A stretch of DNA of 64,000 bases, from NCBI GenBank assembly GCA_965220995.1, contig OZ244856.1, forward strand, positions 97,407 to 161,406, in the 5' to 3' direction. The position numbers were made by a program, and so were the translations under genes. Shown in pieces: positions 11,291-17,094 of this stretch. The stretch is from Acidimicrobiia bacterium (GTDB lineage: Bacteria; Actinomycetota; Acidimicrobiia; Spongiisociales; ZC4RG35). Position 1 is the stretch's first letter. Every line of letters starts with the position of its first letter. A model generated the notes under the pieces. It did no database searches and had not been told where the DNA came from. It saw only the letters and a list, made by a program, of their open reading frames with translations.

Positions 11291-12716
11291 TTTAAGCGGT
11301 ACTTCGGAAATTAGTGGGGAGTGATGGTTGCGAGGAGTTTCCAGTTGGGTTTTCCGGCGTAGAGGAGTGCTCGGATTCGGTAGTTGTCGAAGTTCCGAAA
11401 ACCGAATGCTGCTCGTTTGATCCGTTTGATCAGGTTGTTCAGTCCCTCGGTGGGTCCGTTCGTCACTTTCGAGTGATGCCAGTTGGTGATCTGGGTGGCC
11501 CACCTGCTGATGGTCCGTCCCAGGCGGTTCACCTCTGGAGGGAGTGACCGGTCCTGCAGATCCGAGGCCAGCTGCTGGGTGAACTCCCAAGCCAGTTGTG
11601 GGTCTCCGATCTGGTAGATGTCCCGGACGCTTTCCTTAGCCGACCAGGCATCCCGTACCTCTCCGTAGGGGTCACCAGCCCGTAACAAGCCCCGGAGGCG
11701 GGATTCGCCGTGGCTGTCGATCCTTTCATGGGCCATTATCAAAAGCCGTCGTATGCGATACAGCGGGTCGCGTTTGCGTCCCCGGTGTCCCAGTGTCTCG
11801 TTCTGCACCCGGCATCGGACCTGATCGACGGTGCGGTTAGCCAACCTGATGACATGAAACGGGTCAGCCACCTGAAAGGCGTGGGGCAACACCTGGTCGT
11901 AGGCCACCTGATAAGGGCCGGACAAGTCCAACACCGCCCACTTGATCGCCTCACGCCACCCCTCTGGTTGGTTCCGGAACCAACCAGCCGCGCTTTTTAC
12001 GGTTCTACCAGGCACTATGTCCAACAACTGACACCCACCGACATCCACCACCGACGTGCACCACTGCTTGGTACGCCACCGGCCCTTCTTCCAGAACAGG
12101 GTCTCGTCCACTCCCACCGCCTCCACCCGCCCGAACCGGGCGGTGTCGGCTTCCAACAGCGACTTTCCCCATCGGACGGTCTCCTGGTTCACCGTATGCC
12201 AATCACACCCCAACTCGGCGGCCACCTCCGACACAGTACGCCCCAAACGGCCCACCTGATAAGTGACCCACCGCCCCGCCCGAGACGTCAACAAAGCCCG
12301 CTCCGGCGCCACCGACTCGTCCTGTTCCACAAACGACCCCACGCCGCATTCCCCATCAGGACACATCCAACGACGTTTCCGCCACCGCAACCGCACCGGC
12401 CGCCCAAACGCCGGCAAATCCACCAACCCCACCGTCCGATAGCCCTTCGACCACACCCCACCACCGCACTCATCGCATACTGGACGAAAAGCGCCCGATC
12501 TGATCGTCACCCTCAACCGGTCACCCGAAAGCTCCTCCACCCCTACCAAGTCCACGTCACCCAACCCGACCAACACCTCACACATACGCCTACCATCAGT
12601 CTCCACAGGGTCCTCCTTTCAGATGCGACTGCTTTCAGCACCCGATTATGGAGGACCCTCCCCCACAATCAATGGATTCCCCACTCCCCACTAATTTCCG
12701 AAGATCCTTTTAAGCG
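11291..12716 (-). mobile_element. ISL3-family insertion sequence, apparently intact
   Basis: Terminal inverted repeats of about 32-35 bp, with a perfect 22-bp core CTTCGGAAATTAGTGGGGAGTG at 11302-11323 and its reverse complement at 12683-12704. These flank a single full-length transposase ORF, and the length of about 1.43 kb is typical of ISL3. Confidence 0.8.
11311..12606 (-). CDS. ISL3 family transposase
   Basis: The C-terminal hallmark TNGPTEGLNNLIKRIKRAAFGFRNFDNYRIRALLY is typical of ISL3 transposases. The reading frame is intact at 431 aa. The 345-aa ORF on the opposite strand is spurious. Confidence 0.9.
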   Translation of the reverse strand: METDGRRMCEVLVGLGDVDLVGVEELSGDRLRVTIRSGAFRPVCDECGGGVWSKGYRTVGLVDLPAFGRPVRLRWRKRRWMCPDGECGVGSFVEQDESVAPERALLTSRAGRWVTYQVGRLGRTVSEVAAELGCDWHTVNQETVRWGKSLLEADTARFGRVEAVGVDETLFWKKGRWRTKQWCTSVVDVGGCQLLDIVPGRTVKSAAGWFRNQPEGWREAIKWAVLDLSGPYQVAYDQVLPHAFQVADPFHVIRLANRTVDQVRCRVQNETLGHRGRKRDPLYRIRRLLIMAHERIDSHGESRLRGLLRAGDPYGEVRDAWSAKESVRDIYQIGDPQLAWEFTQQLASDLQDRSLPPEVNRLGRTISRWATQITNWHHSKVTNGPTEGLNNLIKRIKRAAFGFRNFDNYRIRALLYAGKPNWKLLATITPH

Positions 12717-12749: not shown

Positions 12750-13787
12750 TTACCCGTCGTTCTCGGTAGCGGTCTTCAGCCATACGGTGCGCTGGGGGAA
12801 GGGTATTTCGATGCCGGCCTGATCGAAGGCCTCCTTCAGGCGGCCCCGCAACTCCCGCGCTGTGGCGAATTGCTCACCGGCCTCGGTTTTGGCCATCAGG
12901 CGAAGGGAGATGGCGCTTTCGCCGAAGCTTTGCACCCCGGCGATGCTGGGCTCTTCGATGATGGTGGCGTTCGGCAACCGTTCCCGCCACATTCCGTCGG
13001 CCACCTCCTTGATCACCGCCATGGCCGCTTGGAGGTCGGTGTCGTACGACACCTCGATGTCCAGGACGGCGCGTCCCCAGTCCTGGGACATGTTCGCCAC
13101 CCGCCGGATCTCGCCGTTGGGGATATGCCAGAGAGTTCCGGAGAGGTCCCTGATCTGGGTGGTGCGAAGCTTCACTTCCTCCACCACCCCCACCGTGTCC
13201 CCCACGTCCACTGCGTCGCCCACTCCGTACTGGTCTTCGAGCAACATGAACATCCCCGACAAGAAATCCTTGACCAGGCTCTGGGCGCCGAAACCCACCG
13301 CTACTCCCAGAATCCCCGCTCCGGCGATGAGCGGCCCCAAATTGATGCCGAATTCTCCCAGGGACATCATCACGGCCATTCCGTAGATCACGATGGTGGA
13401 GATAGAACGAAGCACCGCGCCCAGGGTTCTGGTCCGCTGACTGCTGCGCTCCTGTTGTTCGACCAGCATCCGGGCCCGTTTTAAGGCCACTTCCCGCAGG
13501 TCGTCCATCCGACCGGGTTCTTCGTCCGGTTCTTCGGAATCCTGGGCGTCCGCCGACGCCCGGCGATTTAACCATCCCTCCACGGCCCGACCCACCGACC
13601 GCCGCACCATCCGATTGATCACCCAGGCCGCCAAGAGAATGATCAACACTTTGATGGGGCGGGCGGCAACCTCCATGAACTTCGCCAGACCGCTGTTGCC
13701 GGTCAGGTCGAAGACCAGGTTGCACACCGTGGCTGGATCTGTTCCGCACGCGTCGGCGAGGGTCTGGGCTAAGAGAAAAGAGTGCAT
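12750..13787 (-). CDS. Mechanosensitive ion channel family protein (MscS-like)
   Basis: TM helices followed by the MscS beta domain (GAGILGVAVGFGAQSLVKDFLSGMFMLLEDQYGVGD..IPNGEI). Start chosen at MHSFLL (AGGTG RBS) rather than the longer track ORF. Confidence 0.8.
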   Translation of the reverse strand: MHSFLLAQTLADACGTDPATVCNLVFDLTGNSGLAKFMEVAARPIKVLIILLAAWVINRMVRRSVGRAVEGWLNRRASADAQDSEEPDEEPGRMDDLREVALKRARMLVEQQERSSQRTRTLGAVLRSISTIVIYGMAVMMSLGEFGINLGPLIAGAGILGVAVGFGAQSLVKDFLSGMFMLLEDQYGVGDAVDVGDTVGVVEEVKLRTTQIRDLSGTLWHIPNGEIRRVANMSQDWGRAVLDIEVSYDTDLQAAMAVIKEVADGMWRERLPNATIIEEPSIAGVQSFGESAISLRLMAKTEAGEQFATARELRGRLKEAFDQAGIEIPFPQRTVWLKTATENDG

Positions 13788-13902
13788 ATCACAACACCTA
13801 TCAGTGGTCTCCTGCCATTCTATTGCCGATGAGACAACCCAAATCCGACGGCCCGCAGGCGCCCATTCGGCGAAAACTTGGTCCGATGCCGGGGAGGATC
13901 GG

Positions 13903-14556
13903 TTGAGGTTTGTCAATCGCACTCACGCCGGGCGGCGTCTGGCCCGTTTGCTTGATCACCTGCGCAACCAACCCGTGGTGGTTCTCGGCCTGCCCCGCGG
14001 CGGCGTGCCGGTGGGCTTTCAGGTGGCCCGTCGACTCTCGGCGCCCCTGGAAGTGCTGCTGGTGCGAAAACTCGGGGCGCCTTTCCAACCGGAGTTGGCC
14101 ATGGGCGCCATCGGCGAAGGCGAAATCCGGATCATCGACCAGGAGCGTGTGCGCCAGTTGGGCATCAAACCCGATCAGATAGACCGGGTGGAACGACAGG
14201 AGCGAAAGGAACTGGACCGGCAGGGGAAGGTCTTTCGGCAGGGCCGGCGGTCCATTGATCTGATGGGCAGGACGGCGATCATCGTGGATGACGGGGTGGC
14301 CACCGGGTCCACCGCCCTGGCCGCCTGCTCCATCGCCCGACGGCTCGGCGCCGACCGGATCGTGATGGCCACCCCGGTTGCTCCCCGCGAGGTTGTTCCG
14401 ACTTTCGAGCAGGCGGTCGACCAGTTCGTGGCGGTGACCACTCCCCAAAGGATGGGCGCTATCGGATTCTTCTACGCAGACTTTCGTCCCACCCCCGATT
14501 CCGAGGTGATTGATCTGTTGGAGTGCTCCCGCCGCACCGATCCCGGCCCGGACTGA
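13903..14556 (+). CDS. Phosphoribosyltransferase-family protein (type I PRTase fold)
   Basis: PRPP-binding motif 'TAIIVDDGVATGST' plus an N-terminal 'VVLGLPRGGVPVG' hood. The start is uncertain: a TTG at 13903 is in frame, and the track ORF overlaps the divergent MscS gene. Confidence 0.6.
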   Translation: MRFVNRTHAGRRLARLLDHLRNQPVVVLGLPRGGVPVGFQVARRLSAPLEVLLVRKLGAPFQPELAMGAIGEGEIRIIDQERVRQLGIKPDQIDRVERQERKELDRQGKVFRQGRRSIDLMGRTAIIVDDGVATGSTALAACSIARRLGADRIVMATPVAPREVVPTFEQAVDQFVAVTTPQRMGAIGFFYADFRPTPDSEVIDLLECSRRTDPGPD

Positions 14557-14657
14557 CCCGCCATACAAGGCCGGGGATGGTCGCCTCGCAGCGGGTGACA
14601 TGGCGGAAGAGTTACCATTGTTGGCGCGATGACGCCCGAATAGGAGGAGTTTTTGTC

Positions 14658-15809
14658 GTGGTAGTTCCCATGAGTGATCTGGCCGCCGAATACCGGTCCC
14701 TGAAAACGGATATCGACGATGCGGTGGGCCGGGTGCTGGCCAGCGGTAACTACGTCATGGGCGAGGAGTTGGAGGCCTTCGAAGCGGCGTTCGCCGACTA
14801 TGTGGGAGCCGGCTACGCCATGGGAGTGGGCTCGGGAACGGCCGCTTTGCATCTCGCTCTGGCGGCGCTCGAACTGGGACCCGACGATGAGGTGATCACC
14901 GTCCCCAACACCGACAATCCCACCGCCTCGGCAGTCACGCATGCCGGGTCCAAAGTGGTGCTGTCCGACACCACCGAGGACACCTTCACCATGGACCCCG
15001 AAAAGCTTGAGGAAAAGATCACCCCCCGCACCAGGGTGATTCTTCCGGTGCATCTGTTCGGGCATCCGGCCGACATGGATCCGATTTGCGAAATCGCCGA
15101 GCGCCATGGGATAGCCGTGCTGGAAGACTCGGCCTTGGCGGTGGGCGGGGAGTACAAGGGCCGAAGGACGGGAACTTTTGGGCCGCTCGGGTGTTTCAGC
15201 GTGGCGCCGGGAAAGATTCTGGGGGGATACGGCGACGGGGGAATGGTGGTGACCAACGATCCCGACCTGGCCCACCGGATCAGGGTGCTCCGCAACTACG
15301 GCCACGCTCCCGGGCTGAGATTGTCAGGTAAGGATCTCACCGGGGGGAGCGGCTGGAGGGTGCTGGAGGAAGGCTTCAATCAACGGCTCGACACCCTGCA
15401 GGCCGCAGTGCTGGCCACCAAGTTGCCCACCTTGGAAGACCGGATCGCCGGTCGACGACGGGCGGCCGATCTGTACCGGGAAATCTTCACGGGGACGCCG
15501 GTGACGTCGGTCCACGAGGCCCCTTGGGCCCGTCACGTCTACTTCGCCTACAACGCCATGGTCCCCGCCAATCTTCGCGATCAGGCCCGAGAGCACTTGG
15601 CTTCCCGGGGGGTGGCCAGCCGCCTGTATTACAACCCGCCCCTTCACCTTCACCCCGCCTATCGATGGATGGGTTTGGAGGCCGGGTCGTTACCGGTGGC
15701 CGAGGACACCGCGTCAAGAATGATCGGCTTGCCGTGCTTCCCCCAGATCACCGAATCCCAGGTGGAACAGGCCGCCTCCGCCCTCCTGGAGTTCATGGGT
15801 CGGCATTAG
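14658..15809 (+). CDS. DegT/DnrJ/EryC1/StrS-family PLP-dependent aminotransferase
   Basis: N-terminal 'DIDDAVGRVLASGNYVMGEELEAFEAAFADYVGAGYAMGVGSGTAALHLAL' is typical of sugar aminotransferases. GTG start 8 nt after an AGGAGG RBS. Confidence 0.8.
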   Translation: MVVPMSDLAAEYRSLKTDIDDAVGRVLASGNYVMGEELEAFEAAFADYVGAGYAMGVGSGTAALHLALAALELGPDDEVITVPNTDNPTASAVTHAGSKVVLSDTTEDTFTMDPEKLEEKITPRTRVILPVHLFGHPADMDPICEIAERHGIAVLEDSALAVGGEYKGRRTGTFGPLGCFSVAPGKILGGYGDGGMVVTNDPDLAHRIRVLRNYGHAPGLRLSGKDLTGGSGWRVLEEGFNQRLDTLQAAVLATKLPTLEDRIAGRRRAADLYREIFTGTPVTSVHEAPWARHVYFAYNAMVPANLRDQAREHLASRGVASRLYYNPPLHLHPAYRWMGLEAGSLPVAEDTASRMIGLPCFPQITESQVEQAASALLEFMGRH

Positions 15810-15864
15810 CGGCGCGCAAGAGCCAGTCCGGCCTGATTGCGGGACCCCGTAGCGACGATATATC

Positions 15865-15878
15865 AGATCATATGATCT
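15865..15878. promoter_or_regulatory. Perfect 14-bp palindrome AGATCATATGATCT, with two more (A/T)TGATCT copies before the Fic start codon
   Basis: Seen directly in the lower-GC intergenic region. Copies of (A/T)TGATCT sit at about 15872, 15903 and 15925 (overlapping the Fic ATG), with a TTGACT -35-like hexamer adjacent. Confidence 0.35.
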
Positions 15879-15924
15879 CTTGACTATGCATCCAGGGTCG
15901 TTTTGATCTAATATATCCAATCAA

Positions 15925-17094
15925 ATGATCTATCAAACACCAACACTGTCGTGGGTTGATCGACGGGTCCTGGAAGAGATCTTCAACCTGGCTGAGCGGC
16001 TGAGATGGTATTTGCATGTTCCCGAGAGGTGGTACGGGCCTTTGCGGCGCACCGCCATGGCCGGAGCCGTGCAGGGCTCGGTAGCCATCGAGGGTTATCA
16101 CGCCACCCTGGACAACGTGAGCTCGGTGATGGAGGGAGAAGATGTCGCCGAACTCGAAGAAGACACCAAGGCCGCCATCGCCGGATATCGCGATGCCATG
16201 ACCTTCGCCCTGGCGGTGGCGGACGACTGGCCGCGGATCGACCAGTCTCTTATCCGATCGATGCACTATATGATCGTCCGTCACGACCGGGGGGCTCGTC
16301 CGGGGAACTGGCGTCCGGGAAATGTTTGGGTAAGAGACAGCGTGGGGGAGGTGGTGTACAACCCCCCTGACCGGTCGGAGCTGTCCGACCTATTAGTCGA
16401 GTTGACCAATCAGTTGTCCGTTGAGGAGGGGCATCCTCTGGTTAGAGCTGCTATGGCTCATCTCAATCTGGTGTTGATTCATCCATTTCGGGACGGTAAT
16501 GGTCGGGTGGCCCGGTGTCTGCAGACCTTCGTTCTGGCGTCGGCCGGAATTCGCGAGCCGGTGTTTTCCAGTATCGAGGCGTACCTGGGACATCACACTC
16601 CCAGCTACTACCAGGCGCTGAGCGAAACCGCAGCCGGAAGATGGTCGCCGGAGCGAAGCGCCCGGTCCTGGATACGGTTTTGCCTAACCGCTCACTTTAT
16701 GCAGGCCCGCACCCATCTGCGGAGGATTGAGGAAACCGAAATGTTGTGGGGGGATTGTGAACGGGCTGCCGAGACCGCCGGGTTGCCCGACCGGGTAGTT
16801 GGAGGGTTGTGTGACGCCGCCCGGGGAACGATCCTGCATCGCTCTTTGTACCGTCGCACAACCGCCCTTTCAACCGCACAGGAGCCCAGCGAACCGGCTG
16901 CCACCCGAGACCTTGCCGCTTTGACCAAGGCCGGACTACTGGAGCCTTCCGGCGCCGGACGCCGCCGCACCTACCGGGCCACGCCGAAGTTGAGAAAGCT
17001 GTGGGACGAAATCCGCGCCAGACGCCGGGAATGGCTGATCAAGGATCCATATGTCACCTTCGGACAGCAACGGATTCCTACCCAGGGTGACTGA
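15925..17094 (+). CDS. Fic family protein (class II, self-inhibited AMPylator-type) with C-terminal wHTH-like region
   Basis: Canonical Fic motif HPFRDGNGRVARCL. The N-terminal region carries an (S/T)xxxE(G/N) inhibitory-helix-like motif (SSVMEG). Local GC is lower than in the flanks. Confidence 0.85.
   Translation: MIYQTPTLSWVDRRVLEEIFNLAERLRWYLHVPERWYGPLRRTAMAGAVQGSVAIEGYHATLDNVSSVMEGEDVAELEEDTKAAIAGYRDAMTFALAVADDWPRIDQSLIRSMHYMIVRHDRGARPGNWRPGNVWVRDSVGEVVYNPPDRSELSDLLVELTNQLSVEEGHPLVRAAMAHLNLVLIHPFRDGNGRVARCLQTFVLASAGIREPVFSSIEAYLGHHTPSYYQALSETAAGRWSPERSARSWIRFCLTAHFMQARTHLRRIEETEMLWGDCERAAETAGLPDRVVGGLCDAARGTILHRSLYRRTTALSTAQEPSEPAATRDLAALTKAGLLEPSGAGRRRTYRATPKLRKLWDEIRARRREWLIKDPYVTFGQQRIPTQGD

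Follow-up and report, generated by a model that had tools for sequence, protein, structure and literature searches.

A class II Fic enzyme of Acidimicrobiia predicted to repress its own promoter through conserved inverted repeats

In Yersinia pseudotuberculosis, the C-terminal helix-turn-helix (HTH) domain of the Fic protein CccR represses its own promoter through AGATAATCAT-N26-ATGATAATCT, located near the -35 and -10 positions, as established by electrophoretic mobility shift assays, DNase I footprinting, isothermal titration calorimetry, and lacZ fusions (PMC9755527). In Shewanella oneidensis, dimeric SoFic binds its own upstream region, namely the first 100 bp before the gene (bioRxiv 10.64898/2026.07.09.737422), which suggests a further precedent for autoregulation. 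CbFic2 of Coxiella burnetii shows largely sequence-unspecific DNA binding, which drives dimerization and switches the AMPylation and de-AMPylation of histone H3 (PMC10628234). In Escherichia coli, the Sofic gene is directly followed by a small antitoxin gene, AS1 (~47 aa) (PMC12249575). Here, we describe a Fic gene in a 64,000-nucleotide stretch of the genome of an Acidimicrobiia bacterium (contig OZ244856.1, positions 97,407 to 161,406; hereafter, the window). Sequence comparisons suggest, with a probability that we put at roughly 75%, that its product represses its own leaderless promoter through sites upstream of the gene (i.e., negative autoregulation). From these comparisons we infer the binder (the Fic protein itself), the consequence of binding (repression), and the transcription start; for a possible enzymatic target, those of relatives (EF-Tu for SoFic and FtsZ for CccR) serve only as precedent.

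The window Fic protein shares with CccR (YPK_0951; PDB 7xux) the succession of an N-terminal inhibitory helix, a Fic core, and a C-terminal HTH domain, and the two match structurally over their full length at ~21% sequence identity. Like the CccR gene, whose inverted repeats have an ATGAT/ATCAT core and lie over the -35/-10 region, the window gene carries inverted repeats over its own promoter, with repression measured in CccR and predicted in the window. The arrangement differs in detail, as CccR uses two 10-bp boxes 26 bp apart, which fits winged helices 70 Å apart in a back-to-back dimer, whereas the half-sites here lie 11 to 12 bp apart, in units present in two or three copies. CccR is also an effector secreted by the type VI secretion system (T6SS), its gene lying beside T6SS genes, whereas the neighbors of the window gene encode MscS, a phosphoribosyltransferase (PRTase), DegT, DUF7847, YkuD, and an amidase. 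SoFic (SO_4266; PDB 3eqx/3zcn), considered here together with the single-gene SoFic anti-phage defense system, is likewise a class II Fic protein with a C-terminal winged helix; however, it is only ~22% identical, and the window gene lies in a conserved housekeeping context rather than in a defense island or on a plasmid. No counterpart of the Sofic-AS1 pair is present, as the Fic stop codon is followed after 33 bp by the convergent DUF7847 gene and no conserved downstream family was found. CbFic2 (PDB 8cil) combines the same Fic and winged-helix parts and binds DNA through its HTH domain, but no operator has been described before its gene. The eukaryotic class II enzyme FICD/HYPE has the Fic core in common with the window protein, and its TVAIEG motif aligns exactly with SVAIEG of the latter; it lacks the winged helix, possesses tetratricopeptide repeat and transmembrane parts, and is regulated in an unrelated way. 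Judged by these comparisons, the window gene resembles CccR in its predicted autoregulatory design and is not a T6SS effector, a SoFic ortholog, or an obvious mobile defense gene.

The Fic gene is the only long open reading frame (ORF) at the locus in the ORF list, and its start codon is fixed by the N-terminal MIY..P, which is kept in homologs. The 389-aa product matches Pfam Fic (PF02661; E value, 1.9e-14; 54.7 bits against a cut-off of 24) and contains an intact active-site motif, HPFRDGNGRVAR (residues 186 to 197), that follows the pattern HxFx(D/E)GNGRxxR; H186, P187, D190, G191, N192, G193, R194, and R197 are invariant across the family alignment. The preliminary description of this DNA, made from sequence alone, had recognized both the Fic protein with its intact motif and its membership in class II, and both assignments hold, the latter through an inhibitory-type motif located N-terminal to the core in the same chain. 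The product, by its sequence a class II Fic enzyme, most likely acts both as an AMP transferase and as a de-AMPylase. It is recognized by the SoFic model of PADLOC (E value, 1.7e-49); the score against the NCBIfam SoFic equivalog NF046030 is 67 bits, compared with a curated cut-off of 550, and the protein is therefore SoFic-like in architecture but belongs to a distant family and is not a SoFic ortholog. Three family members may be pseudogenes or reflect assembly errors, as they look truncated or frameshifted: L007 ends after 35 aa, and in L023 and L048 the reading frame is lost within the winged helix.

The position of the inhibitory motif differs from that proposed earlier. The segment S52-V-A-I-E56-G57 conforms to [S/T]xxxE[G/N], and S52, I55, E56, and G57 are invariant among 34 homologs. 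It aligns residue for residue with hTVAIEGn of FICD (E234) and SLAIEN of PDB 4rgl, corresponds in position to S59ARIEG of CccR (PMC9755527), and sits at the end of a predicted helix (residues 34 to 55) preceding the Fic core. This segment, as the counterpart of the motifs with FICD E234 and SoFic E73, assigns the protein to class II on sequence grounds. SSVMEG (residues 66 to 71), which had been taken for the inhibitory helix, fits the regular expression only: its serine positions change to A, T, or D and its glycine to D, H, or E in homologs, and it lies 14 residues past the motif of FICD and 4rgl. We therefore rejected it, and the glutamate relevant for mutation is E56 rather than E70.

An AlphaFold (AF2) model built on the 34 homologs (predicted local distance difference test score [pLDDT], 86) consists of a long N-terminal helix, the helix that runs to residue 55, the Fic core, and, at the C terminus, a winged helix (helices 306 to 317 and 323 to 335 and a beta-hairpin at 339 to 352). 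Foldseek returned full-length matches to SoFic (3zcn/3eqx), Dde_2494 (4rgl), CbFic2 (8cil), Mycobacterium marinum Fic (7cb8), and CccR (7xux); those to 3zcn, 8cil, and 7xux span 357 to 397 columns, and SoFic is the best structural match (357 to 361 columns). The C terminus can be aligned to the ArsR-family structure 3f6v over the recognition helix and wing of the latter, a weak NCBIfam ArsR/SmtB match covers residues 311 to 355, and T327, R328, R346, R348, and Y350 of the winged helix are invariant in homologs. The model secondary structure, the Foldseek matches, and the ArsR-like alignment thus agree with the C-terminal winged HTH (wHTH) domain claimed previously, and the predicted protein has the SoFic-type architecture of a Fic core followed by a wHTH domain with a full-length fold match.

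The 115 bp that separate the Fic gene from the upstream DegT-type aminotransferase gene contain a 14-bp perfect palindrome, AGATCATATGATCT (AGATCA-TA-TGATCT), and two further (A/T)TGATCT copies, i.e., TTGATCT at 15903 to 15909 and ATGATCT over the start codon, where it also encodes Met-Ile-Tyr; the palindrome, the additional copies, and the overlap with the ATG are all as first described. Counting both palindrome arms, four copies thus fall within 67 bp upstream of and over the Fic start. WTGATCT occurs 25 times in the window, compared with 11.2 ± 3.4 in shuffled sequences, and the probability of four sites in 75 nt given 25 randomly placed ones is ~5e-5, so the cluster is not a chance feature. 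GATCANNTGATC is found in perfect form nowhere else in the 64 kb, with the start-codon copy as the only other intergenic near-match. The repeat structure extends beyond the earlier description and includes a 21-nt direct repeat (ATATATCAGATCATATGATCT, 15858 to 15878, and ATATATCCAATCAAATGATCT, 15911 to 15931; 53 bp apart, 86% identity), composed of ATATATC followed by the palindrome, and a 14-nt inverted repeat (GATATATCAGATCA, 15857 to 15870, and TGATCTAATATATC, 15904 to 15917). Between the palindrome and the start codon lies a unit of the form TGAT-N12-ATCA, the only intergenic instance in the window, which encloses a -10-like box (Table 1). The palindrome itself is best understood as two half-sites placed back to back, one being the right arm of a degenerate distal unit and the other the left arm of the unit that follows.

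Leaderless mRNAs are common in Actinobacteria. No Shine-Dalgarno sequence was found upstream of the Fic ATG, and the distance from the -10-like box to the ATG is 7 to 10 nt, with the box ending as close as 7 nt before it; the Fic mRNA thus probably has no leader or almost none, with a transcription start predicted accordingly. TTGACT (15880 to 15885) was considered as a -35 box and rejected, being 23 to 26 nt from either -10 candidate and not conserved in orthologs. An RNA element in the 5' region was likewise dismissed (no Rfam match; fold z = -1.2, not significant).

We aligned the upstream region of the window with seven orthologous ones (eight in total; 68 to 87% protein identity). Before the start codon, every invariant column belonged to a half-site, the ATATAT stretch, or the -10 box; by position, these columns fell in both arms of the distal palindrome, in TGATC (-21), in the ATATAAT box (-13 to -8), and in ATC (-5 to -3). 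The 25-nt spacer contained no invariant column, and the regions further upstream had also diverged. The -10 box has the consensus ATATAAT, with A-T-A invariant, and the proximal unit occupies the identical position (-21 to -2) in all close orthologs. The palindrome, whose absence from orthologous Fic loci had been named in advance as grounds for abandoning the operator interpretation, is conserved there: six of the seven orthologous regions retain it in the form GATCA-NN-TGATC, the second distal half-site of the 68% relative (L001) being oriented the same way as the first. Three orthologs (L001, L082, and L086) have preserved the whole of the distal unit, TGAT-N12-ATCA at -74.

Constraint in this clade appears to reach into the coding sequence. 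TGATCTAT at +2 to +9 is invariant, including in members that start with GTG, and codons 2 and 3 are ATC and TAT in all 10 clade members (the window, L001, and L081 to L088), compared with 44% TAT among all other Tyr codons of these genes; other clades more often have ATC TAC at the two positions. These patterns hint at DNA-level constraint on the first codons. Clades whose proteins begin with Met-Val-Phe retain the proximal unit without the start-codon copy, so ATGATCT at the start codon is regarded as an accessory half-site.

A wider comparison covered 87 family loci from Acidimicrobiia, Solirubrobacterales, Gaiellales, and other groups, scanned from -100 to +12 with expected counts taken from composition-matched shuffles. 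The conserved operator unit of the family is TGAT-N11/12-ATCA around the -10 box. Exact TGAT-N11-13-ATCA was present in 47 of the 87 loci (0.9 expected); with one mismatch allowed, at least one site was found in 71 loci (8.2 expected) and at least two in 39 (0.46 expected). Outside the scanned region, the other 742 kb of these loci contained 37 exact matches, corresponding to a background of 0.0056 per 112 nt. Unit centers fall mostly at -20 to -10, and the distances between sites are typical of individual clades (~34 bp, 22 bp, and, in the clade of the window, ~53 bp). The majority of the family has TGATA...TATCA in the same layout as the unit of the window. A generic best-palindrome test against shuffles was significant in only 28 of the 87 loci, the motif-specific test being much sharper. 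Thus, the 14-bp palindrome proposed as the operator is conserved among orthologs of the clade but confined to it, and the family-wide element is the TGAT-N11/12-ATCA unit. A search for a wider regulon, which covered the 64-kb window, yielded no further unit or palindrome sites in its other intergenic regions.

Table 1. Coordinates of the Fic gene, its upstream elements, and other features mentioned in the text (window numbering unless a locus is named)
Feature	Position	Strand	Basis or remark
Fic gene, 389 aa	15925..17094	+	ORF list, PF02661, PADLOC SoFic model, AF2 model, full-length Foldseek matches
Distal copy of 21-nt direct repeat (partner 15911-15931)	15858..15878	+	Repeat search
Distal perfect palindrome AGATCA-TA-TGATCT	15865..15878	.	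Centered 53 bp upstream of the proximal palindrome
Proximal operator unit (predicted) TGATCTAATATATCCAATCA, TGAT-N12-ATCA, enclosing the -10 box	15904..15923	.	Ortholog and family conservation
-10-like box: TATATC 15912-15917 (aligns with ortholog TATAAT); alternative TAATAT 15909-15914	15909..15917	+	Ortholog alignment
ATGATCT on the start codon; half-site TGATCT (15926-15931)	15925..15931	+	Palindrome AATCA-AA-TGATCT with 15919-15923
Inhibitory-helix motif S52-V-A-I-E56-G57	16078..16095	+	Alignment to FICD/4rgl, invariance in 34 homologs, AF2 helix
SSVMEG, residues 66-71, chance pattern match	16120..16137	+	Variable in homologs; offset from FICD/4rgl motif
Fic active-site motif H186-PFRDGNGRVA-R197	16480..16515	+	Read from sequence; family alignment
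Winged-helix region; recognition helix ...SEPAATRDLAALTKAGLL, wing GAGRRRTYRA	16831..16983	+	AF2 model, 3f6v alignment, ArsR/SmtB match, invariance
ISL3-family transposase	11311-12606	-	Pfam DDE_Tnp_ISL3, E 2e-57; 3.3 kb upstream of the Fic gene
PRTase ORF	13615-14556	+	313 aa (220-235 aa in orthologous loci); overlaps MscS gene by ~300 nt
DegT aminotransferase ORF	14523-15809	+	428 aa (379-384 aa in orthologous loci)
Mobile modules in relatives: IS21 transposase with IstB, PemK/CcdA, Phd/PIN, PIN/RHH (ribbon-helix-helix)	L081 7463-9549 and 11349-11863; L083 9330-9844; L084 5209-5862; L087 1290-1921		

Several observations point to the Fic protein itself as the binder. Flanking protein families recur in at most 14 of the 87 loci, a recurrence that reflects clade synteny, so that neither a partner regulator nor an antitoxin is conserved. 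The operator type tracks the residues that immediately precede the invariant (T/S)RDL in the recognition helix. Where residue 324 is Leu, the half-sites are TGATA and the exact unit is present in 30 of 37 loci; where it is Pro, as in the clade of the window, they are TGATC with N12 spacing (6 of 7 loci); and where it is Ala, Gly, or Asp, other repeats are found, with the exact unit in 2 of 24 loci. One Acidimicrobiales genome (OZ242339.1) encodes two Fic paralogs (L008 and L015) whose upstream repeats are unlike each other and whose recognition helices differ (SGAMATRDL and SDLSASRDL), which suggests mutually insulated operator-repressor pairs. A trans-acting regulator encoded elsewhere might use the upstream repeats instead, with the Fic winged helix serving target recruitment or the control of catalysis. 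Such an arrangement would accord with CbFic2, in which the winged helix and DNA binding control dimerization and (de)AMPylation rather than transcription (PMC10628234), and the identity of the binder at the window locus is a prediction. We nevertheless consider another regulator unlikely, because the unit accompanies the Fic gene over Acidimicrobiia, Solirubrobacterales, and Gaiellales despite unrelated neighbors, is essentially absent from the remainder of the loci (where its matches equal background), appears in no other intergenic region of the window, and shifts in type along with the Fic recognition helix, and because CccR and SoFic bind their own promoters.

Negative autoregulation by the Fic protein would proceed as follows. 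The active site would be restrained by the intramolecular inhibitory glutamate E56 in SVAIEG, which in a class II enzyme is expected to block binding of the ATP gamma-phosphate, and the C-terminal winged helix, in a dimer, would bind TGAT...ATCA-type units before its own gene. The proximal unit encloses the -10 box and, together with the half-site in codons 1 to 3, would cover the start point of the leaderless transcript, so that bound Fic protein would exclude RNA polymerase. The distal palindrome, five helical turns upstream, may be a second, cooperative binding site. The tight autoregulation of an AMPylator envisaged in the preliminary description is consistent with repeats that are conserved, operator-like, and unaccompanied by a partner gene, and with the predicted binding by the protein's own HTH domain; the conserved unit, however, is not the palindrome on which that view was built.

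Some results weigh against this mechanism. The half-sites are ~15 to 16 bp apart from center to center, compared with 36 bp in CccR, and the dimer geometry of CccR is therefore not simply transferable. The left arm of the distal unit has been lost in the window, and the -10 box there reads TATATC instead of the TATAAT of the orthologs. A simple sigma-70 scan detected no -35/-10 pair upstream of the Fic gene, so the promoter is one that we infer. The conserved Met-Ile-Tyr N terminus accounts in part for the half-site at the start codon. The covariation of helix and operator is confounded by shared ancestry and is hence supportive rather than decisive. Finally, the relative CbFic2 binds DNA largely without sequence specificity and thereby regulates catalysis, not transcription (PMC10628234).

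The half-sites include four GATC sites within 65 bp (15866, 15874, 15905, and 15927), all inside conserved half-sites, and expression could in principle be set by a Dam-type methylation-sensitive switch, i.e., by methylation state rather than by a dedicated repressor. This possibility seems to us very unlikely, as GATC is specific to the clade, most of the family having TGATA...TATCA in the same layout, and occurs in the window about as often as a Markov model predicts (520 sites, with 537 expected), showing neither avoidance nor enrichment; no methylase came to light, although none was sought, and methylation would at most modulate repressor binding. Almost no credence is due to the idea that the repeats arose by chance or are relics of mobile elements (ends of miniature inverted-repeat transposable elements or insertion sequences [IS]) from a horizontally acquired low-GC insert, for which the upstream ISL3 transposase, the IS21 and toxin-antitoxin modules beside the gene in relatives, and the AT-rich core might speak, but which conflicts with the clustering statistics given above, with sites at a fixed distance from the start codon in all orthologs, with a gene order kept in relatives of 76 to 99% identity, and with an ORF GC content within one standard deviation of the window mean.

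A reading that joins several of these elements is conceivable but improbable. The dimer state of the enzyme, and with it the balance of AMPylation and de-AMPylation, would depend on binding to its own promoter DNA, as in CbFic2; the clade-specific GATC half-sites would confer sensitivity to methylation or replication state; and codons 1 to 3 (ATG ATC TAT) would be dual-coded as a half-site. If so, the locus would be a sensor of DNA state that releases an active toxin, e.g., on phage attack, and dual coding would explain the invariant synonymous positions in codons 2 and 3.

With negative autoregulation as the preferred reading, self-repression through the winged helix seems to characterize Fic-wHTH enzymes in general rather than only the secreted Yersinia effector CccR, and it is probably ancestral among them. 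The autorepression mechanism has been published for relatives and would not surprise a specialist; what is added here is a family-wide definition of the operator, its constant placement across the -10 box and start codon, and the covariation of helix and operator. The family is large, vertically inherited, and actinobacterial, without an experimentally studied member, and its 87 pairs of operator and helix amount to a small natural data set for the study of recognition specificity. Beyond this family, at least six of eight SoFic-like genes on proteobacterial plasmids (L089 to L096; ~130 nt checked) have conspicuous upstream palindromes, often in multiple copies. The A. vitis pTi copy has several ATGTCGAT/ATCGACAT copies, the last one overlapping the ATG, and the Azotobacter plasmid copy has TGCATAGGAAA-N6-TTTCCTATGCA plus a similar second copy; for the Thermus plasmid copy, the sole such feature is a GC-rich hairpin located far upstream. 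The ATGTCGAT half-site that the A. vitis gene shares with one actinobacterial clade was put down to coincidence, as the recognition helices are dissimilar. Two of the plasmid Fic genes (L091 and L092) adjoin DNA methyltransferase or restriction genes.

The Fic gene had been thought to lie in a lower-GC insert, and its absence from related genomes was proposed as a check. Its GC content (60.9%, compared with 62.5% for the window; 26th percentile of equal-sized windows) is close to the mean, the AT-rich part is limited to the 75-bp promoter core (33% GC), and the gene is present with the same neighbors (MscS-PRTase-DegT-Fic-DUF7847-YkuD-amidase) in relatives of 76 to 99% identity. Composition and synteny mark it as an ordinary actinobacterial gene that has been inherited vertically. 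Relatives carry small mobile modules at differing points around the gene, which is itself stable, and the neighborhood looks like an insertion hotspot. SoFic anti-phage systems typically reside on mobile elements or in defense islands; here, the PADLOC SoFic model matches the protein and the locus lies among housekeeping genes, the nearby toxin-antitoxin and IS insertions in relatives being its only island-like trait.

Elsewhere in the window, the 5' part of the ISL3 transposase gene falls in a region where the GC skew is very strong, reaching -0.49. The listed ORFs for the PRTase and DegT exceed those of the orthologous loci in length by 50 to 90 aa (Table 1), and the true starts of both genes are probably further downstream. 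To judge by names, the window probably stems from a sponge-associated Acidimicrobiia bacterium, as many of the closest loci (L001 to L080) belong to genomes whose names refer to such an association (Candidatus Poriferisodalis, Poriferisocius, and Spongiisociaceae).

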